This document shows, in pieces, positions 14,639-45,173 of a stretch of 64,000 nucleotides of DNA (positions are counted from its first letter, which is position 1; the number at the start of each line of letters is the position of its first letter). Origin of the DNA: a virus (taxonomy: Duplodnaviria > Heunggongvirae > Uroviricota > Caudoviricetes); the IMG/VR virus record IMGVR_UViG_3300045988_007243, one strand, 5' to 3'. The translations under genes and the position numbers were made by a program. A model generated the notes under the pieces. The model saw only the letters and a program-made list of their open reading frames with translations, did not search any database and was not told the origin of the DNA.

Positions 14639-14714
14639 TTGGAGAATCCGAAGGGACTCGAACCCTTATAAACCTGTTTTGCAGACAGGCACATAGCCAT
14701 TTCTGTCACGGATT
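14639..14714 (-). tRNA. tRNA-Cys (GCA)
   Basis: Hand-folded cloverleaf: CCA encoded, 7-bp acceptor, T-loop ACTCGAA(rc), anticodon loop gives GCA. Confidence 0.7.
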
Positions 14715-14718
14715 CAAA

Positions 14719-14811
14719 TTGGAGGAAGATACCAGACTTGAACTGGTACACCGATTTCTCAGCTACTGGCAGTTTAGCAAACTGCTCCCTTACCTTTTAG
14801 GGTTAATCTTC
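14719..14811 (-). tRNA. tRNA-Ser (GCU), long variable arm
   Basis: Perfect acceptor pairing (ggaagat/atcttcc), canonical T-arm, 21-nt variable arm, anticodon loop gives GCU. Confidence 0.7.
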
Positions 14812-14813
14812 CA

Positions 14814-15548
14814 TTATTTCTGTAATGCGTTCTTCATTTCTGGTGTTGCAATAGCATCAATTACACCAGTTTTACAAGCATCATCAAACCAGTCTGGTAA
14901 GATACCTGCTAAGAACCCATTGATATTCGTTTTAAGGTACTCTGCAATAAGGGCAGCTTCTTCTTCAATCATCTGCACAACTTCATCTGCATAAGCTGTA
15001 ATCTTCGAGATACCTTCATTAATCTTACTAACAGCTTGGTTAGCTAAATCAGAAATAGTATCAAGACCTTTGTCAATAGCGTCTTGTAAATCACTTAATA
15101 CATCATTAACACCGTCTAGTGCACTGTTAATCGTATCAATAGCTTTTTGACCATACTCTGTAGCAACACCCATAATACCACTAAATGGTGTACAGCCAAC
15201 TTGTTCACCTGCTGCACCCATAACATTAGAATAACCTTTTGCTACCTGCATACGTGATGAAAACTCATCAATGGACTTTTGACCGTAATCTGTCAGTGTT
15301 TTGGTAGTTGATGTAGTGCTTGTCAGACTCGTGGTAAAGCTGTTAAGCAGAACTGTTGTAAGTCCAGCAGCAACAAGCTTATCTTTTACTGTAGGGTCTG
15401 ATACAGAACTAATAGAGCTTACAAGTGATGTAGAGGCAGCTACGGTTCCACCGAGAACTGCTGCACCAGTAATAAGGGGGTTAGAAAACCCTTTACCAGT
15501 TTTTAAGAGATTAAAAATCTCCTTACCTTGTTCTGTCATCTCTTTCAT
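14814..15548 (-). CDS. hypothetical protein embedded in tRNA array
   Basis: ORF-track start at 15611 overlaps a tRNA; start moved to internal ATG (MKEMTEQ...) with AAAGG RBS. Confidence 0.4.
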   Translation of the reverse strand: MKEMTEQGKEIFNLLKTGKGFSNPLITGAAVLGGTVAASTSLVSSISSVSDPTVKDKLVAAGLTTVLLNSFTTSLTSTTSTTKTLTDYGQKSIDEFSSRMQVAKGYSNVMGAAGEQVGCTPFSGIMGVATEYGQKAIDTINSALDGVNDVLSDLQDAIDKGLDTISDLANQAVSKINEGISKITAYADEVVQMIEEEAALIAEYLKTNINGFLAGILPDWFDDACKTGVIDAIATPEMKNALQK

Positions 15549-15566
15549 TAAGCACCTTTGAAATTG

Positions 15567-15641
15567 GTAGTCCAGTGGGATTTGAACCCTCTTCTCATGT
15601 TTTTCAGACACGCGCTTTAACCATATAAGCTACTTGGACTA
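15567..15641 (-). tRNA. tRNA-Phe (GAA), tentative
   Basis: Acceptor tagtcca/tggacta pairs perfectly, T-loop ATTTGAA(rc), anticodon loop gives GAA; T-stem and D-arm imperfect. Confidence 0.45.
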
Positions 15642-15646
15642 TAAAT

Positions 15647-15722
15647 TGGGGTGACCTACGGGATTTGAACCCGTATAGACCATGTTCACAGCATGGGTCA
15701 TTACCATTTATGATAAGGCCAC
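15647..15722 (-). tRNA. tRNA-His (GUG)
   Basis: Perfect T-stem and anticodon stem, loop gives GUG, discriminator C73 as expected for His. Confidence 0.65.
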
Positions 15723-15753
15723 ATTTAAGGACTCTCGTAAGAATCCTTAGAAG

Positions 15754-15829
15754 TGGCAGCGGCATAAGGATTTGAACCTTAATAAGACAGCTTCAGAGAC
15801 TGCTGCATTGCCAGTTATGCTATACCGCT
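15754..15829 (-). tRNA. tRNA-Gln (CUG)
   Basis: CCA encoded, canonical T-arm, anticodon stem with two G-U pairs, loop gives CUG. Confidence 0.55.
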
Positions 15830-15834
15830 AAATT

Positions 15835-15913
15835 TGGTACTCCATATCGGATTCGAACCGATACATAACACAGATTTTAAGTCTGGCCTCTCTGCCAATT
15901 GGAGTAATGGAGC
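15835..15913 (-). tRNA. tRNA with Leu anticodon UAA, short variable arm
   Basis: CCA encoded, A73, canonical T-arm, anticodon loop CUUAAAA; only 6-7 nt between T and anticodon arms. Confidence 0.5.
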
Positions 15914-15915
15914 AT

Positions 15916-15991
15916 TGGCGGGGGATGTTGGAATTGAACCAACTTCTTCGATTTCAAAGACCGAGGTTTTAACCTTGTAAACTAATCCCCT
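15916..15991 (-). tRNA. tRNA-Gln (UUG)
   Basis: CCA encoded, perfect T-stem and D-stem, anticodon loop gives UUG; position 1-72 unpaired. Confidence 0.55.
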
Positions 15992-15999
15992 TTAAATCT

Positions 16000-16557
16000 T
16001 TACTTTCTCAGTGGATGAATAAAGAATGCCAACATAACTCTTTCCCTTGAGAATGCTCTTTCTTCTGGGACAACACTTTTTAGTTTCCATCCAATATAAA
16101 TTCTCCAGTAAAATTGTTTACCAAAGATTTTAATTGATGGGATAAAAGCGAATAACCCCCAAGCATTACTGTTCCACATTAGGAGATAACCAGTCTGATT
16201 ATCTTCAGGGTCAGAACTTACGTTGATATTACCTTTCCACTTAGTAACATCTTTTACATCTCTTCCTAATACATGGTAAGAGAAGTTATAAGCTTTGTTT
16301 CTCCAGAGCCATCCGACTCTCTGCATATAGACACCAAGCTTACCAATCTTTCTAATCTTAGCCCATCGTTTGATATGACCTGCATCACCATCAATTGGGT
16401 TGTCATAAGTCTCCATCCATCTGAACCCGAAAGGCAAGTGTCCTTTCTTCTCACTGTAGAATGGAACTACAAAAGGTGCTAAGATAACTGCTAAGATTGC
16501 TGCAAATGGCTCTAACAAAGCTAAGAAAATCCATGAAGCATACTTTAAGTATCTCAT
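16000..16557 (-). CDS. membrane protein (hypothetical)
   Basis: 185 aa, hydrophobic N-terminal segment; lies between tRNA sub-clusters. Confidence 0.4.
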   Translation of the reverse strand: MRYLKYASWIFLALLEPFAAILAVILAPFVVPFYSEKKGHLPFGFRWMETYDNPIDGDAGHIKRWAKIRKIGKLGVYMQRVGWLWRNKAYNFSYHVLGRDVKDVTKWKGNINVSSDPEDNQTGYLLMWNSNAWGLFAFIPSIKIFGKQFYWRIYIGWKLKSVVPEERAFSRERVMLAFFIHPLRK

Positions 16558-16796
16558 TGTCTAATCCTCGTAAGGAGGTAAATGTTATTATTCGTTTCTA
16601 AACCTTCTGGTAAAACTGTCTCAAAAATAACACTCTTCAGATGTCTACCACCAAAACAATCACGTATAAATCTTTCTACTCTAGCGGGGTCACATAAGTA
16701 TCCCACTTTTAAGAAAATGTGGTGTTCAACACCAATGACCCTGACAAACTCAATACTCTCACAGTTTTCATGTTCAACTACTGTTAATGTTTGCAT
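16554..16796 (-). CDS. hypothetical protein
   Basis: 80 aa ORF between tRNA sub-clusters. Confidence 0.35.
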   Translation of the reverse strand: MQTLTVVEHENCESIEFVRVIGVEHHIFLKVGYLCDPARVERFIRDCFGGRHLKSVIFETVLPEGLETNNNIYLLTRIRQ

Positions 16797-16814
16797 AGTA
16801 TCACCTTTTTATCT

Positions 16815-16890
16815 GGCGCAGGATAAGGGATTCGAACCCCTATTAACAGCTTCGTAGACTGTTGCTCTTTCCATTTGAACTAATCCTGCA
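16815..16890 (-). tRNA. tRNA-Arg (ACG)
   Basis: CCA encoded, perfect acceptor pairing gcaggat/atcctgc, anticodon loop gives ACG. Confidence 0.65.
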
Positions 16891-16895
16891 AAATT

Positions 16896-16973
16896 GGTGT
16901 TCCAAGACGGATTCGAACCGTCACTAATACAAGGTTTGAGCTTGCATCCTCTGCCAATTGGGATACTGGAACA
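16896..16973 (-). tRNA. tRNA with Leu anticodon CAA, short variable arm
   Basis: CCA encoded, A73, perfect T-arm, anticodon loop CUCAAAC; scaffold paralogous to 15835-15913 and 17476-17552. Confidence 0.5.
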
Positions 16974-16974
16974 T

Positions 16975-17049
16975 GGTACTCACTAAAGGACTTGAACCTT
17001 TTTCTTCATCTTGTAAGGGTGATGTTTTACCATATAAACTAAGCGAGTA
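16975..17049 (-). tRNA. tRNA-Val (UAC)
   Basis: CCA encoded, perfect T-stem and D-stem, anticodon loop gives UAC (one stem mismatch). Confidence 0.55.
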
Positions 17050-17054
17050 TGAAA

Positions 17055-17141
17055 GAGGTCTGAAGTTGTGCCGCTAACTCAACTCCGTGGAATTTGTTAC
17101 GGTCTTCAGTTGACTCAAAGCGGTCTTTCACTTGACCTCTG
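17055..17141 (-). other. tRNA-sized structured element without canonical T-loop
   Basis: 87-nt interval in a tRNA-sized gap with perfectly paired 7-nt termini (agaggtc/gacctct) and internal ctgaag/cttcag repeat, but no GTTCRANY T-loop. Confidence 0.3.
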
Positions 17142-17145
17142 AATT

Positions 17146-17222
17146 GGTGCTGCTCACAGGACTTGAACCCGCATCTCCATCCTTACAAGGGATGTGTAAT
17201 AGCCAATTATACGAAAGCAGCA
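17146..17222 (-). tRNA. tRNA-Thr (UGU)
   Basis: CCA encoded, perfect anticodon stem catcc/ggatg, loop gives UGU. Confidence 0.6.
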
Positions 17223-17229
17223 TTAATTT

Positions 17230-17304
17230 GGAGCATCCAGAGGGAATCGAACCCTCAACCTCAGTTTGGAAGACTGTAATTTTCCCGTTTAAACTATGGA
17301 TGCA
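17230..17304 (-). tRNA. tRNA-Gly (UCC)
   Basis: Perfect acceptor gcatcca/tggatgc, perfect T-stem, U73, anticodon loop gives UCC. Confidence 0.65.
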
Positions 17305-17310
17305 CTAATT

Positions 17311-17386
17311 GGTGGAGAAGCAGGGAATTGAACCCTGTACTTAAGTTTGCAAAACTTATGTTTTAACCATGTAAACTACATCCCCA
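17311..17386 (-). tRNA. tRNA-Ala (UGC)
   Basis: Perfect T-, anticodon- and D-stems; anticodon UGC; G3-U70 wobble and A73 (Ala identity elements) present. Confidence 0.7.
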
Positions 17387-17392
17387 ATGTTT

Positions 17393-17468
17393 GGTACAGG
17401 TGGAGGGAATTGAACCCATCATCTTACTGATTAAGAGTCAGCCGCATAACCATTTTGCTACACCTGCA
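17393..17468 (-). tRNA. tRNA-Lys (CUU)
   Basis: CCA encoded, anticodon hairpin actga/tcagc with loop giving CUU; scaffold paralogous to 19090-19165. Confidence 0.55.
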
Positions 17469-17475
17469 TTAATTT

Positions 17476-17552
17476 GGTACACCTAGAGAGATTCGAACTC
17501 ACACTGAGCAGATTCTAAGTCTGCTGCCTCTACCAGTTGGGCTATAGGTGCA
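17476..17552 (-). tRNA. tRNA with Leu anticodon UAG, short variable arm
   Basis: CCA encoded, A73, perfect anticodon stem gcaga/tctgc, loop gives UAG; 5-nt variable region. Confidence 0.5.
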
Positions 17553-18005
17553 TTAAATCAAATGTCTTGAGAATTGACTGTGGCAATTTGGACACAAGAA
17601 CCGAAGATTCTCTTTTCTATCATCTAACCAGTTCTCGTTAATGTGGTCAACATCAAGAGTTAGAGGGTTATCCAACCAATACGGTAACTGACCACATTTA
17701 GAGCATTTGTATTCGACACCAGAGGCTATTAAAGCTCTTCTTAGTTGTGAAGACCTAGCTCTTTCACCAGATTCACGTAGAATTAGTATTTCTTCAGGCT
17801 TTCTTTTTGGTACAGTTTTAATCTTACCAGCCTTTTGTCCGAGGAAATGAGAAGTGTCTATTTCAAACTTCTCTATAACACGCTTTAGATGTGACTGAGA
17901 ACCACCTGCTGGTTTTCTCCCAAGCTTAATAAGTACTTCTCTGAATGATACTGAATCCTTTACTAAAGGCTCAAGAATATCTTTAGTCAAACTGCTACGT
18001 GCCAT
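17553..18005 (-). CDS. HNH homing endonuclease
   Basis: 150 aa; C-terminal HNH motif (LDVDHINENWLDDRKENLRFLCPNCH); free-standing inside tRNA array. Confidence 0.75.
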   Translation of the reverse strand: MARSSLTKDILEPLVKDSVSFREVLIKLGRKPAGGSQSHLKRVIEKFEIDTSHFLGQKAGKIKTVPKRKPEEILILRESGERARSSQLRRALIASGVEYKCSKCGQLPYWLDNPLTLDVDHINENWLDDRKENLRFLCPNCHSQFSRHLI

Positions 18006-18097
18006 GTGTCAATCTCCCATTAAACCTTTTTAGAGAACTTCTAAGAACCTAAGCAACAAGGTTCCACAACAAGCTGTAATAACCTTAGAAGCCCTCT

Positions 18098-18122
18098 AAA
18101 AAGACCTAAAAAGGTCTTTGCA
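18098..18122 (-). terminator. possible intrinsic terminator/hairpin
   Basis: AGACC-N5-GGTCT hairpin followed by a short U-tract on the minus strand. Confidence 0.3.
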
Positions 18123-18274
18123 TAGTCTTGTTTAATCTGGTGACTAGAACCTTTGGAGAGCTTGATATTATCTCTTCTCCGTGACACCTACTAGGTGCTT
18201 TATCAGTGTGTACGACAACACGAGGGATAAACCGAAAATGCGAGCAAGCATGGACGGTGTAAAATCTTATTAGG

Positions 18275-18362
18275 CGGTAAGTAAAGGAGTCGAACCCTCA
18301 CCGTATCTCTACAGTGGCAACAGTTTTCAAGACTGTTTGGCTGCCATTAGCCGCTACCTACC
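18275..18362 (-). tRNA. tRNA-Ser (UGA), long variable arm
   Basis: Perfect anticodon stem acagt/actgt, loop gives UGA, 20-nt variable arm; CCA not encoded. Confidence 0.6.
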
Positions 18363-18375
18363 CCTAATAAGACTT

Positions 18376-18458
18376 TGGCATGGGACGGAGGAGTTGAACC
18401 CCTTTGAAACGGTTTTGGAGGCCGTTGCTCATGCCTTAGAGTCTTAACATCGTCCCAT
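18376..18458 (-). tRNA. tRNA, identity unresolved (possibly Trp CCA)
   Basis: CCA encoded, perfect acceptor atgggac/gtcccat, canonical T-loop; internal fold ambiguous, about 7 nt longer than class I. Confidence 0.4.
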
Positions 18459-18601
18459 ACTATAATTCGAAGCTCACCGTATTATCTCAACACTGTAAAG
18501 CCCCTTCTCAGATTATTTACATGTTCTGGAAAACATGAGATACAGACCACCTCCCTACAGGAAGACCCGCTTAGGTCGTCTAAGTAATCTGCTAACTAAA
18601 T

Positions 18602-18683
18602 TGGTCGAGGCGGCAGGACTCGAACCCGCATACTCCACTTACTCGGTTAACGGCGGTTTAGAAGACCGCTGAGATACGCCCCG
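18602..18683 (-). tRNA. atypical tRNA-like gene (anticodon hairpin reads UCU, Arg)
   Basis: CCA encoded, acceptor and T-arm canonical, perfect 5-bp hairpin with loop UCU, but no room for a normal D-arm. Confidence 0.35.
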
Positions 18684-18931
18684 TAATTATCTTTAAAGAC
18701 TCTCTTAGAAAGCCCTTAAAGATGCCCACCTTATTAATCATACCGTGGGCGAGTACGCCAAATTCTTTGATGAGGGATTGGAAGACCTCACTGGTGTTTA
18801 GCCTATCAAGCTACTGCCAGAAAAACATTGTCGTTTGCATTTATTTTAAATTTGCAAAATAGACGCTACGCAACGAAAACTAAGGTTAGTATAAAGTAGT
18901 CACATCTCAATGTCAACAACTTTATTGAAAT

Positions 18932-19007
18932 TGGTACTGGTAGGTGGAATCGAACCACCGATGTTCCCTTATCAGGGGAGTGTTATAACCTTCTTAACTA
19001 TACCAGC
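18932..19007 (-). tRNA. tRNA-Ile (GAU)
   Basis: Perfect T-stem ggtgg/ccacc, perfect D-stem, anticodon loop gives GAU. Confidence 0.6.
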
Positions 19008-19008
19008 T

Positions 19009-19085
19009 TGGAGGTTCAGATGGGAATCGAACCCACATTCATAGGGCTTATGAGACCCTTGCATTACCTTATCTGCGACTGAACC
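19009..19085 (-). tRNA. tRNA-Met (CAU) (or lysidine Ile)
   Basis: Perfect acceptor ggttcag/ctgaacc, anticodon stem with GGG/CCC, loop gives CAU. Confidence 0.6.
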
Positions 19086-19089
19086 ATAT

Positions 19090-19165
19090 TGGTAGAAGTG
19101 GAGGGATTCGAACCCATCGCCTGTCAGATTAAAAGTCTGCCGCATCACCATTCTGCTACACTTCC
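19090..19165 (-). tRNA. tRNA-Lys (UUU)
   Basis: CCA encoded, anticodon loop TTAAAAG(rc) gives UUU. Confidence 0.55.
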
Positions 19166-19170
19166 ATTAA

Positions 19171-19312
19171 ATTATCTTTGTAGATAAGCTACCCAGACTT
19201 GCTTAAGGTCTGTAGCGATGTGCCTTTTTGGGTTTAAATCTAGAATTTACCCTTTCACCCTTTGTGGTCGCATACTCACAGGTAAGCTTAATAACTTATC
19301 TACAAAGATAAT
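19171..19312. repeat. 18-bp perfect inverted repeat pair flanking a 106-bp spacer
   Basis: attatctttgtagataag at 19171-19188 is the exact reverse complement of cttatctacaaagataat at 19295-19312. Confidence 0.6.
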
Positions 19313-19365
19313 TACCAGACCGTTGTTTATCATCTTAAGTGCTACCATTACACCAACTCGACATC

Positions 19366-19390
19366 TGCCGAGTGAAGGAATCGAACCTTC
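19366..19390 (-). pseudogene. tRNA 3' fragment (acceptor + T-arm only)
   Basis: gccgagt + gaagg-AATCGAA-ccttc matches a tRNA 3' half but no matching 5' half follows. Confidence 0.35.
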
Positions 19391-19424
19391 GCCTTTTCTT
19401 TACCGAGAAATAGATTGTTTAAGT

Positions 19425-19452
19425 TTTGCTGTAAACGGTCTTCTGTAAATTT
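19425..19452. repeat. 28-bp repeat tttgctgtaaacggtcttctgtaaattt, copy 1
   Basis: Identical 28-mer at 19993-20020; diverged copies at 19512-19536 and 20161-20187. Confidence 0.6.
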
Positions 19453-19619
19453 GTTGAGCCAGACCAAGTTTTAAATTTTTCAAAATTAAATTGGCTTGAA
19501 ATTTTAAGTAACTTGCTGAATTTGGTCTTCTGCTCCTTTAAAGAATACTCGTAAGAACCCTTTAAGGGAGGGGCTAAATAGCCCTCTCAAAACATCATTT
19601 TGAAATACTTATTATAAGT

Positions 19620-19696
19620 TGGCGGCTACGATGAGACTTGAACTCACATCATCTCCCGTGACAGGGGAGTATTTTCTCCAGTTAAACTACATAGCC
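19620..19696 (-). tRNA. tRNA-Asp (GUC)
   Basis: CCA encoded, perfect anticodon stem ctccc/gggag, loop gives GUC. Confidence 0.65.
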
Positions 19697-19701
19697 TTTA
19701 T

Positions 19702-19789
19702 TGGTGTGCCGTGTAGGAGTCGAACCTACCGAGTCTCAATGACAAGGGATTTACAGTCCCCACCGCTACCATCTACGGGATAACGACAC
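19702..19789 (-). tRNA. tRNA-Tyr (GUA), long variable arm
   Basis: Perfect T-stem, anticodon loop gives GUA, about 15-nt variable arm. Confidence 0.6.
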
Positions 19790-19801
19790 ATTTTAATTTA
19801 T

Positions 19802-19857
19802 ATTCAGGATAAGGACTTGCACCTTACAAATCGGTGAGCAATCGCTTCTCTCCTAAA
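19802..19857 (-). pseudogene. truncated tRNA-like element (56 nt)
   Basis: Acceptor-like ends pair, perfect T-stem taagg/cctta around a mutated T-loop ACTTGCA; too short for a tRNA. Confidence 0.3.
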
Positions 19858-19859
19858 TT

Positions 19860-19936
19860 TGGCGGTTAGTCAGGGATTCGAACCCTGTGCCATTCGCTTA
19901 ACAGGCGACCGCACATACCTTATGTGCTTCCTAACC
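19860..19936 (-). tRNA. tRNA-Asn (GUU)
   Basis: Perfect T-stem caggg/ccctg, D-stem gcac/gtgc, anticodon loop gives GUU. Confidence 0.55.
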
Positions 19937-19992
19937 ATGTTTAGTATTACCAGACCGTATCTTTCAATTTTTTCCGCTAAAAATTTCATTAA

Positions 19993-20020
19993 ATTTGCTG
20001 TAAACGGTCTTCTGTAAATT
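19993..20020. repeat. 28-bp repeat tttgctgtaaacggtcttctgtaaattt, copy 2
   Basis: Identical to 19425-19452; abuts the 3' end of the tRNA at 20020-20096. Confidence 0.6.
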
Positions 20021-20096
20021 TGGAGGCGGGTGAAGGAGTCGAACCTGCCGATACCATGCTAATGAGACATGTGAGACGCCCTTTCTCTATACCCGC
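20020..20096 (-). tRNA. tRNA-Met/Ile2 (CAU), second CAU species
   Basis: CCA encoded, anticodon stem catgc/acatg, loop gives CAU; position 1-72 unpaired. Confidence 0.5.
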
Positions 20097-20188
20097 AATT
20101 CTTAATGACCAGACCAAATCTCTTCTTTGTCCGATTTACCTTCAGATGAATAAGATTAAGTTTGCTGTAATTGGTCTTCTGTCAAAAC

Positions 20189-20266
20189 TGGCGTTCCAGA
20201 AGGGATTTGAACCCTCAAATATCCACTTTGAAAGAGTGGTGACTATACCATTTTGTCTACTGGAAC
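20189..20266 (-). tRNA. tRNA-Glu (UUC)
   Basis: Perfect acceptor gttccag/ctggaac, perfect anticodon stem ccact/agtgg, loop gives UUC. Confidence 0.65.
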
Positions 20267-20273
20267 ATTAATT

Positions 20274-20350
20274 TGGTCTCTGTTGGAGGACTTGAACCTC
20301 CGGCCTTACCGCCCCAAACGGAACGCTCTACCAAGCTGAGCTAAACAGAG
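20274..20350 (-). tRNA. tRNA-Pro (UGG)
   Basis: Perfect acceptor ctctgtt/aacagag, perfect T- and D-stems, anticodon loop gives UGG. Confidence 0.6.
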
Positions 20351-20514: not shown

Positions 20515-21930
20515 TTACCAGATATAACGGTCAATCATTACTGCTTTGAGCATTACGCTGATTGGGTCAAACTTCTCACCACCAAGCAGAGCTTTTAAAG
20601 TGGCTGGAGAGAAACCAGATACCATTGCTACACCGTTATCCTTAACAGACACTTCGCAAGTACCATTACGGTTTGCTAAGTACCAGAATACCAGTTGTGG
20701 CATTTCGTATCCAGCTTTTTTGTACTTACTCTGAATTGCTTCAAAGTTTGTACGACCGTTAGCTCCATCAACCTGATTGAACTCCATATCGGAGAAGATG
20801 ATAAGCTTACTTGGCATATCTTTCTGAGTCAAGTTGTTTCTTTTACCTGTCTCAAGAATACGGTCAAAAGCAGCTTGTAAGTTAGTTGAGCCATATTCAA
20901 CGTGTCGCATCACCTGACGATGACGGTTTCGTAAATCACCACTCAGTTCGATGAAGTGAGGGTTTGTTGAATAAACCATCAACTCATTCTTAAAGCAACC
21001 TGTATTGCGTTCTGCTACATACAAGGCAAGTGATACACCAATATCCAGAGCAGTAATGGAGCCAAAATTCACCCAATACATTGAACTTGACACATCAGAC
21101 ATACATAGAATGTTTTCACCCTCTGCCATCCAGTTTGGTAGTGCTTTCCACTGCTCATTAGCAACATCTGCATTACCATACTTAACAGATTTAATCACAT
21201 CGTATGGGTAAACAGCACCAGCATTAATCTTAGTCTCACCCTTTGATAAGGACTCGATGTAAGCTTTGTAGCGTTCTCCATCTTTGCGGTTAAACAGTTT
21301 TTGGTAACGTGCAGCAGCAAGTGAAGGAATCTTACTGTAGTCAATCTTACCAAACTCATTAGCAGAGATTTTTTGCTCGACTGTATCAGATAGTGCAGAC
21401 AACAGTGTGCGGTACTCTTTCTCACTCAAGTTGGCAAACTTGCAGAAACGTTTTACAAACTGCTTATGACGTGGTTTGACTCGTGGTAACCACTTAGCTG
21501 CCAAACCTGCTGTTGCAGGGTCTAGTAATGCTGCTTCTAAATGTTTGAAGGCATCTGTCTCGAAACGAGTACCTACGAAGATTTTGAAGTCATCAAAACG
21601 ACCAAGTTCTGCAATCTTATCCATAATGCGAAGAACCTGTGTAGGCTCTAAAACTTTATCTTCAATCGCTTGAAGCAAAACAGTTCTGAAGGCTTTACGC
21701 TCACCCATACCTTCTCGTACATCTCGCATATGCAGTAAAATACGAACTGCAACATCAACATCCTCACGCAAAGCTTTGTAGAACAGGTCTGGTAAGATTT
21801 CTACATTGCTACGGCTTGAACCAGCAGCTTTGTAAAAGTCTACAAGAGCAGACATTGATGAAGTATGGTTTACAGCACCATTTTCAGTTCGACCTGCATG
21901 AAGGTGCGCATGTTTAAATAATTCGCTCAT
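20515..21930 (-). CDS. vWA (MIDAS) domain protein, possibly Ro/TROVE-like
   Basis: 471 aa; DxSxS MIDAS motif (MSDVSSSM) within a vWA-like fold; about 280 aa N-terminal domain of unknown type. Confidence 0.5.
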   Translation of the reverse strand: MSELFKHAHLHAGRTENGAVNHTSSMSALVDFYKAAGSSRSNVEILPDLFYKALREDVDVAVRILLHMRDVREGMGERKAFRTVLLQAIEDKVLEPTQVLRIMDKIAELGRFDDFKIFVGTRFETDAFKHLEAALLDPATAGLAAKWLPRVKPRHKQFVKRFCKFANLSEKEYRTLLSALSDTVEQKISANEFGKIDYSKIPSLAAARYQKLFNRKDGERYKAYIESLSKGETKINAGAVYPYDVIKSVKYGNADVANEQWKALPNWMAEGENILCMSDVSSSMYWVNFGSITALDIGVSLALYVAERNTGCFKNELMVYSTNPHFIELSGDLRNRHRQVMRHVEYGSTNLQAAFDRILETGKRNNLTQKDMPSKLIIFSDMEFNQVDGANGRTNFEAIQSKYKKAGYEMPQLVFWYLANRNGTCEVSVKDNGVAMVSGFSPATLKALLGGEKFDPISVMLKAVMIDRYIW

Positions 21931-22012: not shown

Positions 22013-22384
22013 TTATTTTTTGAGGGTTGCAACAGCAGAGAACGTTGGTTTGTTATCTGTCTGAGACTGACCACCGTTATCAGGAGTCTTCTTAGTGTCT
22101 GCTGCAATGGCTTTCATCTCACCTGCTGAGTGAGTCATGATAGTTTTACCGACCTCAATCATACTCTTGATGGTTACATCGTCTGTGTTTAACCCGAACT
22201 CTGCAAGCTTAGCAGCGTCCCTTGTAACAATCGCCTCAAACAACTTTGCAGCAAACTCAGCAGAATTATCAATGGTCAGTTGAGCTTTTACAAGTGAGCT
22301 TTTGTTACGAGAGCCTTTTGGTCTTCCAGATGGGTTTCCAGATTGGCCTTTTTTAAACTGGCCTTTGTTTGTTCTGTTTTTCAT
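22013..22384 (-). CDS. hypothetical protein (GNPxGRPKG motif)
   Basis: 123 aa, basic N-terminus with GQSGNPSGRPKGS motif. Confidence 0.4.
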   Translation of the reverse strand: MKNRTNKGQFKKGQSGNPSGRPKGSRNKSSLVKAQLTIDNSAEFAAKLFEAIVTRDAAKLAEFGLNTDDVTIKSMIEVGKTIMTHSAGEMKAIAADTKKTPDNGGQSQTDNKPTFSAVATLKK

Positions 22385-42806: not shown

Positions 42807-45173
42807 TTAATCGTAAATTGTAGTCCCTTCTGGAACACACTTCACATCAAAGCCTAAGAACTTACCCACTTCGATAGGTGACACTTTATTCCAATCTAAA
42901 TGAGAAAGCAAGAAGTTTTCTTGTTTTCTTTTTGAAAGGTAGTTTGTCACCTTAATGACCATGCGGTCACCAGCTTTCTTAATTTTCTTGTAAAGCTTTG
43001 TATCATTGTCAAGGCATTCTTTCAAAGTTTGCAATCTACTAACAGTGTAAGTGTATGCAAACGGTGCAGCAACGTATTGGATTTTACCGAACATTGCCTC
43101 TACAGCCTCTTCATTACCTTCTAGGAAGATAGTTTTGTTTGTATCCAGTGAATAGCAATAACCACGAGAAATCTTCCTATTATTGAATGTAAAGTTTCTG
43201 GCAATAATCCAGCTACTTGTAAGGTCAAGAACACCATCCATGTAGATGCGTGTCATATACCTGTTATGATTAATCCAATGAACATCAGTTAAGCTGTCAT
43301 TCAAGAGCTTCTCATCTACTTCAATCCAGTCTTCTGGTATCTTTTTCCAATTTGCTTTTCGGAAAACATAGACTGTCTTTCCAATAACATTAGCAACTGA
43401 CTTAGCTACATCTTCTGGGGATGAGCAAAAACATCTACCATCAACTGTGTCGCCTACTGCCTTGATATAAAGCTGAGACTCTTCAATTGTGTCTAAGTCC
43501 TCTGACACCTCTTTGTAGGAGGCTACACCTTCTGCTGGAACAGCTTTCCAGAGTTTTACAACACCTCTTACAGCTTCTTTACGCTGGTAATGGTGTTCCT
43601 TATCAGACATTTTCACAATCTTTAACAAGCTTTTATCAAGTTTGTGCAGATTGATTAAGTCATCTAACTCTTTTTCAGTCGAGAATACAAAGACAATACC
43701 ATTGTATCTGTGAAACAGACTAGACTCACTTGCATAGTCTCGACATGCACCACGCAAGATTTGGTTACGCCCAACAGTCTTCTCAGTGCCATTTTTATTT
43801 CGACGGTCATTAATCACGAACAAAAACTGTCCAATCTGGCTTTTGCGCATTGCACCAAAGATGTTGAACATGCTCGCCTCTTGAGTGTAGGATAGTGCTG
43901 TTGCACGAATCTTACTCTCTAAAGAGTTAAACTTGACATAAGCAACTGGGTCATAAAGATAATCTACTTTAGGGATATTGTTCCCGTTCCTATCAACCTT
44001 AATATTACCTTTACCGTCACGTTCGTAAATGACTGAGCCGTCTTCTGCGTAGATAATTCCACGACGAATGTTTAGCAATTCTTCTTCCAGAGAATCAAGC
44101 TTAACACCTCCCCACTCTAGCTTTGGACACACAGCATTAAACATCTCTCGTGAGTTCAAACGTAACTCAGCATAAGCCTGTGCAGCATCCATGAGTGTAG
44201 GTTGACTATTAACTTTCTTGATAACATCCTTTGTAATCGCTTCAGTTATCTTTTTAGTAGCCTCAATGATAACATTTTTTGTCGTATCATTCATCTGCAA
44301 TGCTTCACGAGAAGCTGCAATAGCAACTGAACCAATAGGCATGTAGATGTTTACAAGGTCTACGCTCCTACGGAAAAACTCTGGCAAGACTTTGAAGAAA
44401 TCATCACCAAGTAATGCTTCCATGTTCACTGGATAGGCAATATTACCCATCACCACATTAAACTCTGTCCTGTTACCACTAGAACGCCAGCTTTGCTTAT
44501 GAATCATGGCATCATAAACACCTTCTTCACGGGCAATGACGTTCATATCTGCTAATACATCGTCGTACTCAATATTACTTTCTGGTTTTACAGTGAAGTA
44601 TGAGTACACATTTCCAGCTTCTTCAAAGAACTTTGAGATACGGTGGTCAGCAACTGCCACACGTACAGCTAAACCATTAGGTTCTTTTGTTGGGTTAGTT
44701 GTCAGCTTAGTTACTTGAGGGATACCATTCTCAAGATAAACAGAGTACTTATTAACAACACCGTCAACATAGCTAGATACTGTGAATGACTGAGCAATTG
44801 CAAATGGTGACTTTGAGCCGATACCCATTGCACCAATGTAGTCATTAGAGTCATTCTTCGTAGAAGCTCCATAGTTTAGGTACAAACTCATAACTTTATC
44901 ATGAGTCAATCCAGTTCCAAAATCACGAACTTCAAAGTAAGGCTCAAAACGAGTAGGTAAATGCACATGGAACGGGATGTTCTCTTTTCCAGCTTCTTTC
45001 TGAGCATCTACTGCGTTACATGACAGTTCACGAATCACTGCCCTTTCTTTAAAGGTATACACACCAGAACTCAAAAGGCTGAACATCTCAGGTGTCATTG
45101 TAATCTGTGCTTGAGACGTCTCTAAAGAAGTTGAACTCTTAATCACTTCTGCGTGGTCATTTACCATGCGCAT
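42807..45173 (-). CDS. rIIA: rIIA-like protein (N-terminal GHKL/HATPase_c-type domain)
   Basis: 788 aa; N-terminal ATPase-like motifs (ELSCNAVDA, RDFGTGL, GAMGIGSKS); size and rIIB-like neighbour. Confidence 0.55.
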   Translation of the reverse strand: MRMVNDHAEVIKSSTSLETSQAQITMTPEMFSLLSSGVYTFKERAVIRELSCNAVDAQKEAGKENIPFHVHLPTRFEPYFEVRDFGTGLTHDKVMSLYLNYGASTKNDSNDYIGAMGIGSKSPFAIAQSFTVSSYVDGVVNKYSVYLENGIPQVTKLTTNPTKEPNGLAVRVAVADHRISKFFEEAGNVYSYFTVKPESNIEYDDVLADMNVIAREEGVYDAMIHKQSWRSSGNRTEFNVVMGNIAYPVNMEALLGDDFFKVLPEFFRRSVDLVNIYMPIGSVAIAASREALQMNDTTKNVIIEATKKITEAITKDVIKKVNSQPTLMDAAQAYAELRLNSREMFNAVCPKLEWGGVKLDSLEEELLNIRRGIIYAEDGSVIYERDGKGNIKVDRNGNNIPKVDYLYDPVAYVKFNSLESKIRATALSYTQEASMFNIFGAMRKSQIGQFLFVINDRRNKNGTEKTVGRNQILRGACRDYASESSLFHRYNGIVFVFSTEKELDDLINLHKLDKSLLKIVKMSDKEHHYQRKEAVRGVVKLWKAVPAEGVASYKEVSEDLDTIEESQLYIKAVGDTVDGRCFCSSPEDVAKSVANVIGKTVYVFRKANWKKIPEDWIEVDEKLLNDSLTDVHWINHNRYMTRIYMDGVLDLTSSWIIARNFTFNNRKISRGYCYSLDTNKTIFLEGNEEAVEAMFGKIQYVAAPFAYTYTVSRLQTLKECLDNDTKLYKKIKKAGDRMVIKVTNYLSKRKQENFLLSHLDWNKVSPIEVGKFLGFDVKCVPEGTTIYD

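Follow-up and report, generated by a model that had tools for sequence, protein, structure and literature searches.

In textbooks, a long variable arm is the near-universal mark of non-mitochondrial tRNALeu. The same view is taken in PMC6614811, in which E. coli LeuRS is described as type II-only and gives zero charging of the S. coelicolor type I tRNALeu(CAA). In S. coelicolor itself, this type I tRNALeu occurs alongside class II tRNALeu in the same cell, and one LeuRS, ScoLeuRS, charges it; A73 is not an identity element for this enzyme. The minimum variable loop reported for type I tRNALeu is five nucleotides, including nucleotide 48 (PMC6614811). In E. coli tRNALeu, A73 is a crucial element, unlike the anticodon or the long arm (reviewed in PMC9976931). 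According to the passage of that review that cites Larkin et al. 2002, minimalist E. coli tRNALeu constructs without variable and anticodon arms are charged by E. coli LeuRS, and this charging requires A73 and intact D/T-loop tertiary contacts (PMC9976931). No description of phage tRNALeu without a long arm was found in full-text searches of an open-access library, and the word ‘variable’ is absent from the paper on the tRNAs of Shigella phage Sf14.

Three short-arm tRNALeu genes in one tRNA array

The three short-arm tRNALeu genes described here come from a Felixounavirus genome, a Felix O1-type phage of E. coli/Salmonella, represented by the 64,000-nucleotide stretch of DNA that was analysed (the window). 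They lie on the minus strand in an array of 25 tRNAs identified by ARAGORN (14640-20350, minus strand), the layout of which is the same in relatives. The array tRNAs are interspersed with small ORFs and one weak HNH-endonuclease ORF, and nearly all of them encode their CCA, the exception being tRNASer(UGA), which ends in CC. A conserved D-armless tRNA(UCU)-like RNA was also observed at 18605-18683, with G2:C71, G3.U70, G4:C69 and A73; alanine identity was considered for this RNA and dropped, as only 6 of its 26 variants have G.U at 3:70.

ARAGORN identifies tRNALeu(UAA) at 15835-15913 (79 nt), tRNALeu(CAA) at 16895-16972 (78 nt) and tRNALeu(UAG) at 17475-17551 (77 nt); all three encode the CCA end. 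Rfam model RF00005 concurs, with scores of 47.5, 44.0 and 57.3 bits (E-values 7e-10, 6e-9 and 1e-12), all exceeding the gathering score of 29 bits, and with matches that span model positions 1-71. The leucine anticodons assigned in a preliminary description of this DNA are upheld by both; its coordinates hold for the first gene, whereas the second and third pairs were one nucleotide too high, and the minus strand went unstated.

Each gene has a 7-bp acceptor stem, a 7-nt anticodon loop with U33, a T loop that fits UUCRANY, and a discriminator followed by CCA. The anticodon loops, CUUAAAA (UAA), CUCAAAC (CAA) and CUUAGAA (UAG), fall in the same register with ARAGORN and with the Rfam model. A long-arm fold or a shifted anticodon loop, the two findings named in the preliminary description as contrary to its reading, was looked for with both and supported by neither. 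Between the anticodon and T stems there are 7 nt in tRNALeu(UAA) (GUUAUGU), 6 nt in tRNALeu(CAA) (AUUAGU) and 5 nt in tRNALeu(UAG) (UCAGU), in agreement with the 5–7 nt given earlier. The canonical bacterial class II tRNALeu has a variable arm of more than 10 nt that forms a stem-loop, which these genes lack; they have leucine anticodons and variable loops that close with U48 and are 5–7 nt long, and in these respects match the type I form.

The common scaffold noted earlier (T loop, D-loop region and A73) is present in every listed feature. The T loop is UUCGAAU in all three genes, with the partners U54, U55, C56 and A58, and the discriminator is A73 in 3 of 3. The D loop is CAAYUGGYAGA on a 3-bp D stem (CUC-CAAUUGGCAGA-GAG, UCC-CAAUUGGCAGA-GGA and GCC-CAACUGGUAGA-GGC for UAA, CAA and UAG, respectively) and contains the A14, A15, G18G19 and A20a of class II tRNALeu; position 13:22 is unpaired, being marked as non-canonical in the Rfam alignment. 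The A15:U48 Levitt pair is kept in all three, the final variable nucleotide being U in each gene. Further features are as follows. First, tRNALeu(UAA) combines G1.U72 with a C27.U43 mismatch in the anticodon stem. Second, tRNALeu(UAG) combines G1.U72 with a U50.U64 mismatch in the T stem, and has A37 instead of G37, so that m1G37 is impossible on this tRNA, unlike on its host counterpart. Third, single-sequence folding energies are no better than those of shuffles (z = -1.6, -1.8 and -0.2), and the minimum-energy fold of tRNALeu(UAA) is not the cloverleaf.

The array contains its own long-arm comparators, all predicted by ARAGORN on the minus strand: tRNASer(GCU) (14720-14812; 93 nt, 21-nt variable arm), tRNASer(UGA) (18273-18362; 90 nt, 20-nt arm) and tRNATyr(GUA) (19702-19789; 88 nt, 15-nt arm). 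The Ser and Tyr tRNAs retain long arms of 15–21 nt, unlike the tRNALeu, of which all three isoacceptors are of the short-arm type. The long variable arm is an identity element for SerRS, and bacterial TyrRS binds it, which may explain why the arm is lost in Leu only.

Comparison with host tRNALeu

The E. coli genes leuZ (UAA), leuX (CAA) and leuW (UAG) carry the same anticodons as the phage trio and the same 3-bp D stem and 11-nt D loop (NAAYYGGYAGA), and have in common with it U8, A14, A15:U48, G18G19, the T-loop pattern and A73; leuZ also has G1.U72, as in phage tRNALeu(UAA). When the six genes are aligned, U8, A14, A15, G18, G19, the T loop and A73-CCA are invariant, as are the D-loop A-G-A and the G-U ahead of the T stem, and the main difference of the phage genes is an 8–10 nt gap in the variable arm. 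The E. coli genes are 85–87 nt long with a variable stem-loop of 13–15 nt, whereas the phage genes are 77–79 nt long with a loop of 5–7 nt. Position 13 is G or A in host tRNALeu and C in the phage, and the host has U32 and G37 (UAG isoacceptor) where the phage has C32 and A37. The published identity elements of E. coli LeuRS are all retained in the phage tRNALeu.

The features of tRNASer and tRNATyr (a long arm, with G73 for Ser) are absent, the arm being short and the discriminator A73, and the alanine identity pair G3:U70 occurs in none of the three genes, in which position 3:70 is U:A, U:A and A:U. The E. coli Ile, Lys, Met, Phe, Val, Arg and Pro enzymes, which have A73 substrates, require their own anticodons, which counts against charging by any of them. 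The orthologues in Shigella phage Sf14 are 0–1 nt apart from the window genes, tRNALeu(CAA) being identical, and tRNAscan-SE isotype models place Leu at the top for all of these orthologues (60.2, 49.1 and 67.4); for Sf14 tRNALeu(UAG), the Leu score of 67.4 is followed by Ile2 (65.7) and Lys (63.4).

Conservation and distribution

The preliminary description called the three genes paralogous. The term fits in a loose sense only: their pairwise identity is 66–74%, where the background for the 25 array tRNAs is 58 ± 5%, and each is nearer to genes in other viral contigs than to its genome-mates, which weakens a reading as recent paralogues. Most of 264 phage records carry tRNALeu(UAA) at 100% identity; the genes are therefore no chance matches, and purifying selection is strong.

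Pattern scans of IMG/VR give proportions within the sample of matches listed, with at least 120 loci in each scan, rather than totals. Among the matches listed, short loops are present in ~30–50% of Leu-type tRNAs, whereas at the same loci tRNASer is short in 1 of 157 cases (long in 156 of 157) and tRNATyr is long in 60 of 66. The 199 unique short-loop viral tRNALeu among these matches provide evidence that the cloverleaf is maintained: all 20 stem pairs are 90–100% canonical, compared with 40–87% in a shuffled control (99% at 53:61), and 19 of the 20 occur as 3–6 pair types, the other, G53:C61, being nearly invariant. Features that the search pattern did not impose also recur in the matches listed, namely A14 (199/202), A15:U48 (193/202) and a 3-bp D stem (191/202). 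In the same listed sample, most short-loop tRNALeu (171 of 200) have a nearest neighbour that is itself short, and C13 is much commoner in the short forms (61%) than in the long ones (1%).

Short-loop tRNALeu is also found in named phages of four other groups and in many Actinomycetota genomes; the comparison of phage with Actinomycetota genes covers the first 50 nt of each gene, and its identities are approximate. The rarity implied by the preliminary description does not stand, as short-arm tRNALeu is common in phages and Actinomycetota and a bacterial precedent has been published (PMC6614811).

A probable role in leucine decoding

What was directly observed comprises the three genes with their fold and retained identity elements, the conservation and covariation that they show and the codon usage of the phage. 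The three tRNAs are most probably working leucine isoacceptors on a hybrid scaffold, charged by the host LeuRS; we infer their expression, leucylation and ribosomal use from sequence. The scaffold would combine the normal D arm of bacterial class II tRNALeu with a variable arm cut to 5–7 nt and ending in G47-U48. Transcription would take place as part of the phage tRNA array and host enzymes would carry out the processing, with the CCA already encoded. The E. coli/Salmonella LeuRS would then read A73 and the shape of the elbow and core, through U8:A14, A15:U48, G18:U55, G19:C56, A20a and U54:A58, and would read neither the anticodon nor the variable arm. On the ribosome, the UAA and CAA anticodons would decode UUA/UUG, and the UAG anticodon CUA/CUG, a set that the AT-rich phage uses far more than the host-preferred CUG alone. 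In the window ORFs, UUA accounts for 25% of Leu codons, UUG for 14%, CUA for 10% and CUG for 16%.

The 471-aa ORF carries DUF domains only, and none of the nine other ORFs with 380 aa or more contains a synthetase domain; the 788-aa ORF at 42807-45173 has zero Pfam matches. With no synthetase domain in the ORFs of this size, a phage-encoded LeuRS was dropped as a candidate, and charging would have to be the host's. The preliminary description had offered three possibilities: LeuRS charging class-I-like substrates, miscoding through another synthetase, or no use in translation. The retained identity elements clearly favour the first, and there is little support for either of the others.

Counted against host-charged leucine decoding are the S. 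coelicolor result, a lost LeuRS contact, the mismatches, the weak folding z values and A37. The S. coelicolor negative may not transfer to the phage tRNAs, because that tRNA has C48 in place of the U48 used by E. coli LeuRS. As to the contact, PMC6614811 cites a crystal structure in which the C-terminal domain of LeuRS contacts nucleotides 47f-47i of the arm; this is impossible for the short-arm phage tRNAs, and charging efficiency may therefore be reduced.

Alternative explanations

An unlikely alternative accepts the tRNAs as functional leucine decoders, and so refines the explanation above; it concerns the reason for arm loss. It proposes a counter-defence against host toxins or nucleases that recognise class II tRNAs from the long arm, such that leucine decoding survives inactivation of host tRNALeu. 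Evasion of tRNA-targeting defences by phage tRNAs is an established idea (PMC10264068), and the long variable loop is a handle for MenT3: its deletion from tRNASer abolishes long extensions, and its grafting onto tRNAMet confers them (PMC11541572). However, MenT3 prefers tRNASer and discriminates against tRNALeu via arm orientation (PMC11541572), and no arm-directed toxin acting on tRNALeu in E. coli/Salmonella was identified in this analysis. The nearest-neighbour and C13 frequencies point to a coherent short-loop lineage over unrelated phage groups, but about half of phage tRNALeu among the matches listed keep the arm, as does, judged by its length, that of T5, and the armed tRNASer and tRNATyr that these phages also carry would stay exposed. 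Neutral loss of a dispensable element fits the data equally well. A fuller version, to which we give the same small chance, combines an adaptive counter-defence with a mobile short-loop tRNALeu lineage, which would have C13, the class II D arm and G47-U48 as its marks and would pass between unrelated phages and Actinomycetota. Such tRNAs would be chargeable by host LeuRS yet invisible to arm-selecting toxins or nucleases, meaning MenT3/AbiEii-like nucleotidyltransferases or analogous nucleases.

It is very doubtful that the tRNAs have no decoding role and instead occupy host tRNA-binding factors as decoys or sponges, or persist through array linkage as decaying relics. The function of phage tRNAs is debated, the anticodon loops are unlike those of the host (C32, and A37 in tRNALeu(UAG)), as noted for Sf14, and there are single mismatches in the anticodon stem of tRNALeu(UAA) and the T stem of tRNALeu(UAG). 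Near-perfect conservation across hundreds of genomes nevertheless argues against decay, and covariation maintains every stem. The acceptor stem, A73, encoded CCA and identity elements are kept, although an anticodon-nuclease decoy would need none of them, and the three anticodons cover the most-used Leu codons of the phage, CUU/CUC aside.

That another synthetase charges the arm-less tRNAs and places a non-leucine residue at Leu codons is scarcely credible: the class-I-like overall shape removes a shape-based barrier to other synthetases, and the Ile2 and Lys scores of Sf14 tRNALeu(UAG) are near that of Leu, but the isotype models rank Leu first for each of the Sf14 orthologues, the Leu-specific D arm and A15:U48 are kept in 193 of 202 relatives, and miscoding would, given codon usage in the window, affect about half of Leu positions, which is incompatible with strong conservation.

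Implications

A coliphage with an entirely arm-less and conserved Leu set would constitute a natural test of enterobacterial LeuRS on class-I-shaped substrates in vivo. Short forms make up a third to half of phage tRNALeu and essentially zero tRNASer among the matches listed, which suggests that synthetase requirements decide whether the arm can be lost, and it becomes a question again why cellular tRNALeu should have retained one. For annotation, phage tRNALeu calls of 74–79 nt should not be treated as errors. Phage short-arm tRNALeu may also provide compact natural leucine scaffolds for suppressor and orthogonal-tRNA engineering, and are candidates for resistance to variable-arm-targeting toxins.

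Comparison with known tRNALeu

Phage T5 also carries a Leu isoacceptor, tRNALeu(UAG), in a large tRNA array among which HNH endonuclease genes are scattered. At 85 nt, it has the length of the class II host genes (85–87 nt), and T5 was therefore ruled out as a short-Leu example with experimental history; the short form is thus frequent in phages but not universal. Human mitochondrial tRNALeu(UUR) resembles the phage trio in its short variable loop and in its identity by A73 and A14. Unlike the phage tRNAs, it has a dedicated mitochondrial LeuRS, which also contacts the anticodon stem, a floppy, modification-dependent structure, and a compartment separate from class II tRNALeu.

The S. coelicolor type I tRNALeu(CAA) is similar to the phage trio in being of bacterial type with a 5-nt variable loop (PMC6614811), but has C48, whereas the phage tRNAs have U48 and A73. 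The phage tRNAs further differ in being phage-borne, in their likely dependence on an enterobacterial LeuRS and in that all three isoacceptors are short. The minimalist E. coli tRNALeu, as summarised in PMC9976931, needs exactly the elements that the phage tRNAs retain; those are laboratory constructs, whereas the phage tRNAs are natural genes.

Three leucine tRNAs with a short variable region

The preliminary description reported three tRNAs that carry leucine anticodons and a short variable region, and ARAGORN and Rfam concur. The genes, all on the minus strand, are tRNA-Leu(UAA) at 15835-15913 (anticodon loop CUUAAAA, variable region 7 nt), tRNA-Leu(CAA) at 16895-16972 (CUCAAAC, 6 nt) and tRNA-Leu(UAG) at 17475-17551 (CUUAGAA, 5 nt); the coordinates first proposed hold for the UAA gene and were one base too high for the other two. 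Anticodon loops and variable-region lengths agree between the ARAGORN structures and the Rfam covariance-model alignments for all three genes, and neither a long arm nor a shifted anticodon register appears in either. Common to all three are a 7-bp acceptor stem, U8, a D arm with a 3-bp stem and an 11-nt loop (CAAUUGGCAGA or CAACUGGUAGA), an unpaired C.A at 13:22, G-U at the end of the variable loop, a UUCGAAU T loop, A73 and a gene-encoded CCA. Two tRNA-Ser (93 and 90 nt; variable arms 21 and 20 nt) and a tRNA-Tyr (88 nt; 15 nt) of the same array retain long arms, and the arm loss in this array is therefore specific to leucine.

The 6-kb stretch around the three genes is 94–97.5% identical to Felix O1-type myoviruses; the top match is Escherichia phage SP22, followed by wV8, O157 typing phages, and Salmonella and Shigella phages. 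ARAGORN identifies 25 tRNA genes at 14640-20350, every one on the minus strand of the window (38.9% G+C), and relatives contain the same array adjoining terminase, portal and head genes. Rfam at gathering score supports 22 of the 25 and adds one element absent from the ARAGORN calls. Several array tRNAs are atypical under the general tRNA model, since the ARAGORN-called tRNA-Tyr(GUA) (19702-19789, minus strand) and one of two tRNA-Met(CAU) (20021-20097, minus strand) fall below the gathering score, and tRNA-Ser(UGA) (18273-18362) barely reaches it at 31.1 bits. Within the array, a 150-aa ORF (17553-18005, minus strand) matches HNH endonucleases weakly and narrowly misses the Pfam cut-off (E = 3.5e-4); HNH genes between tRNAs also occur in relatives and in T5. 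ORFs matching the domain families of unknown function DUF7217 (14814-15611), DUF7338 (16000-16557) and DUF5681 (22013-22384) lie in or beside the array. Directly upstream is a 471-aa ORF (20515-21930, minus strand) matching Pfam DUF2828 (E = 3e-43) and DUF7788 (E = 3.5e-29), which is annotated as an RNA-binding protein in relatives and keeps its position in Shigella phage Sf14. The 788-aa ORF at 42807-45173 (minus strand) has no Pfam match at E <= 1e-4.

Predicted charging by the host leucyl-tRNA synthetase

The three genes were aligned with the class II tRNALeu genes of matching anticodon from E. coli K-12, leuZ (UAA), leuX (CAA) and leuW (UAG). The phage genes differ essentially by an 8–10 nt gap at the host arm. 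U8, A14, A15, G18, G19, the A-G-A closing the D loop, the G-U ahead of the T stem, G53-U54-U55-C56, A58 and A73-CCA are the same in all six. The phage scaffold is thus a hybrid, with the D arm and core of a class II tRNA-Leu and a variable loop of class I size. According to the 2023 tRNA identity review (PMC9976931), E. coli tRNALeu depends critically on A73 but on neither the anticodon nor the long arm. The review adds that A15-U48, G18G19 and A20a emerged from in vitro selection, that activity showed no correlation with the sequence or folding of the arm, and that molecules lacking both the long arm and the anticodon arm stay active if A73 is kept together with the D/T-loop contacts. All of the LeuRS-relevant elements named in that review are present in the three phage tRNAs. 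The first of the earlier readings, that LeuRS charges a class-I-like substrate here, is thus well supported by the retained identity elements.

Further observations concern the isotype and use of these tRNAs. The Sf14 orthologues differ from the window genes at 0–1 positions, and published tRNAscan-SE isotype scores place Leu first for three of three. UUA, UUG, CUA and CUG make up 25%, 14%, 10% and 16% of leucine codons in the phage ORFs, so roughly half or more of leucine decoding falls to the three tRNAs; the phage genome is far more AT-rich than its host's. No synthetase domain was found in the large ORFs of the window, and charging must therefore be by the host LeuRS. It is quite probable, judging from sequence, that the three genes are functional leucine tRNAs, which the host LeuRS would charge for leucine decoding. 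Host leuW has G37 and U32, whereas phage Leu(UAG) has A37 and C32 and, because of A37, cannot receive m1G37. Among viral NAG tRNA-Leu, A37 is the commoner base in short-loop forms (56 against 25 with G37), whereas G37 leads in long-arm forms (53 against 30 with A37).

The simplest reading of the arm loss is that LeuRS has no need of the arm, whereas SerRS needs it and bacterial TyrRS binds it, so that only tRNA-Leu could drift to the short form. Escape from arm-directed toxins is a rather improbable cause of the loss: MenT3 anchors on the long loop (PMC11541572) and AbiEii, a toxin of abortive infection, seems to favour tRNAs of class II, but arm-directed activity on enterobacterial tRNA-Leu was not found in the literature. 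Charging by another synthetase, with consequent miscoding, is unlikely, since G3:U70 is absent, the Leu-specific core is kept, Leu is the top isotype score, and half of all leucine codons would suffer. A decoy role outside translation leaves unexplained why the acceptor stem, A73 and CCA are conserved and why the anticodon set matches codon usage.

Maintenance and spread of the short form

Several lines of evidence support the short form as a probable maintained structure. First, in a set of 199 unique short-loop tRNA-Leu, each of the 20 stem pairs is canonical in 90–100% of sequences, against 40–87% in a shuffled-partner control (99% for 53:61), although the cloverleaf requirement of ARAGORN inflates the canonical-pair figures somewhat. 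Second, 19 of the 20 pairs occur as 3–6 canonical pair types, with G53:C61 nearly invariant. Third, A14 (199/202), A15:U48 (193/202) and a 3-bp D stem (191/202), all outside the search pattern, are kept in short-loop tRNA-Leu and are nearly universal in long forms too. C13, present in all three window genes, occurs in 61% of short versus 1% of long forms in IMG/VR loci L005-L295, the long forms having G or A, and in 107 of 129 tRNA-Leu (126 short-loop) of bacterial-genome loci among the matches listed. C13 may compensate structurally or may mark a lineage.

When short tRNA-Leu are compared across loci with the anticodon and variable region masked, 171 of 200 have another short form as their nearest neighbour, which suggests that short lineages move among phages rather than arising by a fresh deletion in each. 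The three window genes had been called paralogous. Core identity is 0.76–0.84 to the closest outside relative versus 0.63–0.68 within the window, so they are either old paralogues or separate acquisitions.

The three genes are under strong constraint: most of 264 phage records, which span Felixounavirus, Suspvirus and, at 98.7% identity, Mooglevirus, match Leu(UAA) at 100%. Hundreds of GenBank records carry such genes annotated plainly as tRNA-Leu; the short-arm form is ordinary for this virus group. Short tRNA-Leu also occur in four cultured phages unrelated to the Felix O1-type group: Aeromonas phage AhP_Mru1 (Demerecviridae; three genes of 77 nt), Lactobacillus phage LpeD (Herelleviridae; 74–77 nt), Cronobacter phage CR3 (Vequintavirinae; 74 and 75 nt) and Cyanophage P-RSM6 (Kyanoviridae; 74 nt). 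A tRNA-Leu gene of phage T5 is 85 nt, the length of the host's class II genes. Beside its three short-loop tRNA-Leu, the T5-family AhP_Mru1 has tRNAs annotated as suppressors, their anticodons being CUA and UCA (L002 1900-1974, 2796-2869). Two loci of Salmonella phage FG1m (L001:5999-6076 and L001:5421-5498) depart from this layout. FG1m has a hybrid gene that begins as Leu(CAA) and takes its 3' portion, T arm and acceptor strand, from Leu(UAA); it looks like a recombination deletion between these paralogues with loss of the intervening genes. In place of the usual Leu(UAG), FG1m has a short-loop tRNA-Leu(UAG) of quite another sequence, altered in all of its stems.

IMG/VR was searched with a fixed Leu-type D loop, an HAR anticodon, TTCGA and A73, leaving the variable region free at 4–21 nt, so the short/long ratios are proportions of a pattern-defined sample and not a census. 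Each of the two D-loop versions of the pattern gave at least 120 loci. Among the matches listed, the variable region is at most 8 nt in 43 of 86 with D loop TGGCADA (mostly 5 nt) and in 26 of 91 with TGGTADA. By ARAGORN on loci among the matches listed, a less biased set has 38 short versus 124 long tRNA-Leu, and loci with at least 10 tRNAs have 23 versus 39; in the fetched loci among these matches, tRNA-Ser is long in 156 of 157 (one short) and tRNA-Tyr in 60 of 66. This wider pattern of frequent short-loop tRNA-Leu in phages, near absence of short tRNA-Ser, and the C13 signature is the more useful result.

The short pattern was also scanned in one-genome-per-species bacterial and archaeal contigs, giving at least 120 loci (L299-L418). 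Among the matches listed, 120 genome loci hold at least 126 short tRNA-Leu by ARAGORN, mostly lone genes within 8 kb and heavily from Actinomycetota (Nocardia, Amycolatopsis, Mycobacterium, Rhodococcus, Arthrobacter and a Streptomyces plasmid). Some Leu(UAA) from these loci are approximately 86–92% identical to the window Leu(UAG) over the first 50 nt only.

A D-armless tRNA-like RNA

A further tRNA-like RNA at 18605-18683 (minus strand) scores 31.7 bits with Rfam but is not called by ARAGORN. A 7-nt connector (UAUCUCA) replaces its D arm; the rest comprises a 7-bp acceptor stem, a UCU anticodon arm with the loop CUUCUAA, a T arm preceded by a 23-nt insert (CGUUAACCGAGUAAGUGGAGUAU), A73 and CCA. 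The corresponding place in Sf14 is taken by an ordinary tRNA-Arg(UCU). ARAGORN finds no canonical tRNA-Arg(UCU) in the window, where AGA is 37.5% of arginine codons. Homologues with 82–100% identity appear in 263 phage records that span widely differing groups (Felixounavirus, Asteriusvirus 121Q, Sugarlandvirus, Justusliebigvirus and Vequintavirinae), and that of Asteriusvirus 121Q is annotated as tRNA-Leu. Across 26 unique IMG/VR variants, covariation is rich in all three stems (acceptor, anticodon and T), whereas connector, loop and insert hardly vary, the search pattern having fixed part of these invariant segments. A literature search found no description of this RNA type.

Comparison with type I tRNALeu

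Full-text searches of the open-access literature found no description of short-arm tRNA-Leu in phages. The three genes are phage-borne, enterobacterial type I tRNALeu, a form that is known but little documented. The genome matches extend the report on S. coelicolor; they suggest that its 'rare' type I tRNALeu may belong to a widespread family, and type I tRNALeu is broader than the searchable literature suggests. The main counter-evidence to charging by the host LeuRS comes from that system: E. coli LeuRS failed to charge the S. coelicolor type I tRNALeu and is described as charging type II only (PMC6614811). However, the S. coelicolor tRNA has C48, and its cognate LeuRS ignores A73 (PMC6614811), whereas the phage tRNAs have U48 and A73, both of which E. 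coli LeuRS uses. Because they retain these two elements, the Felix O1-type tRNAs would be a sharper test case for E. coli LeuRS rather than a contradiction of the S. coelicolor result.
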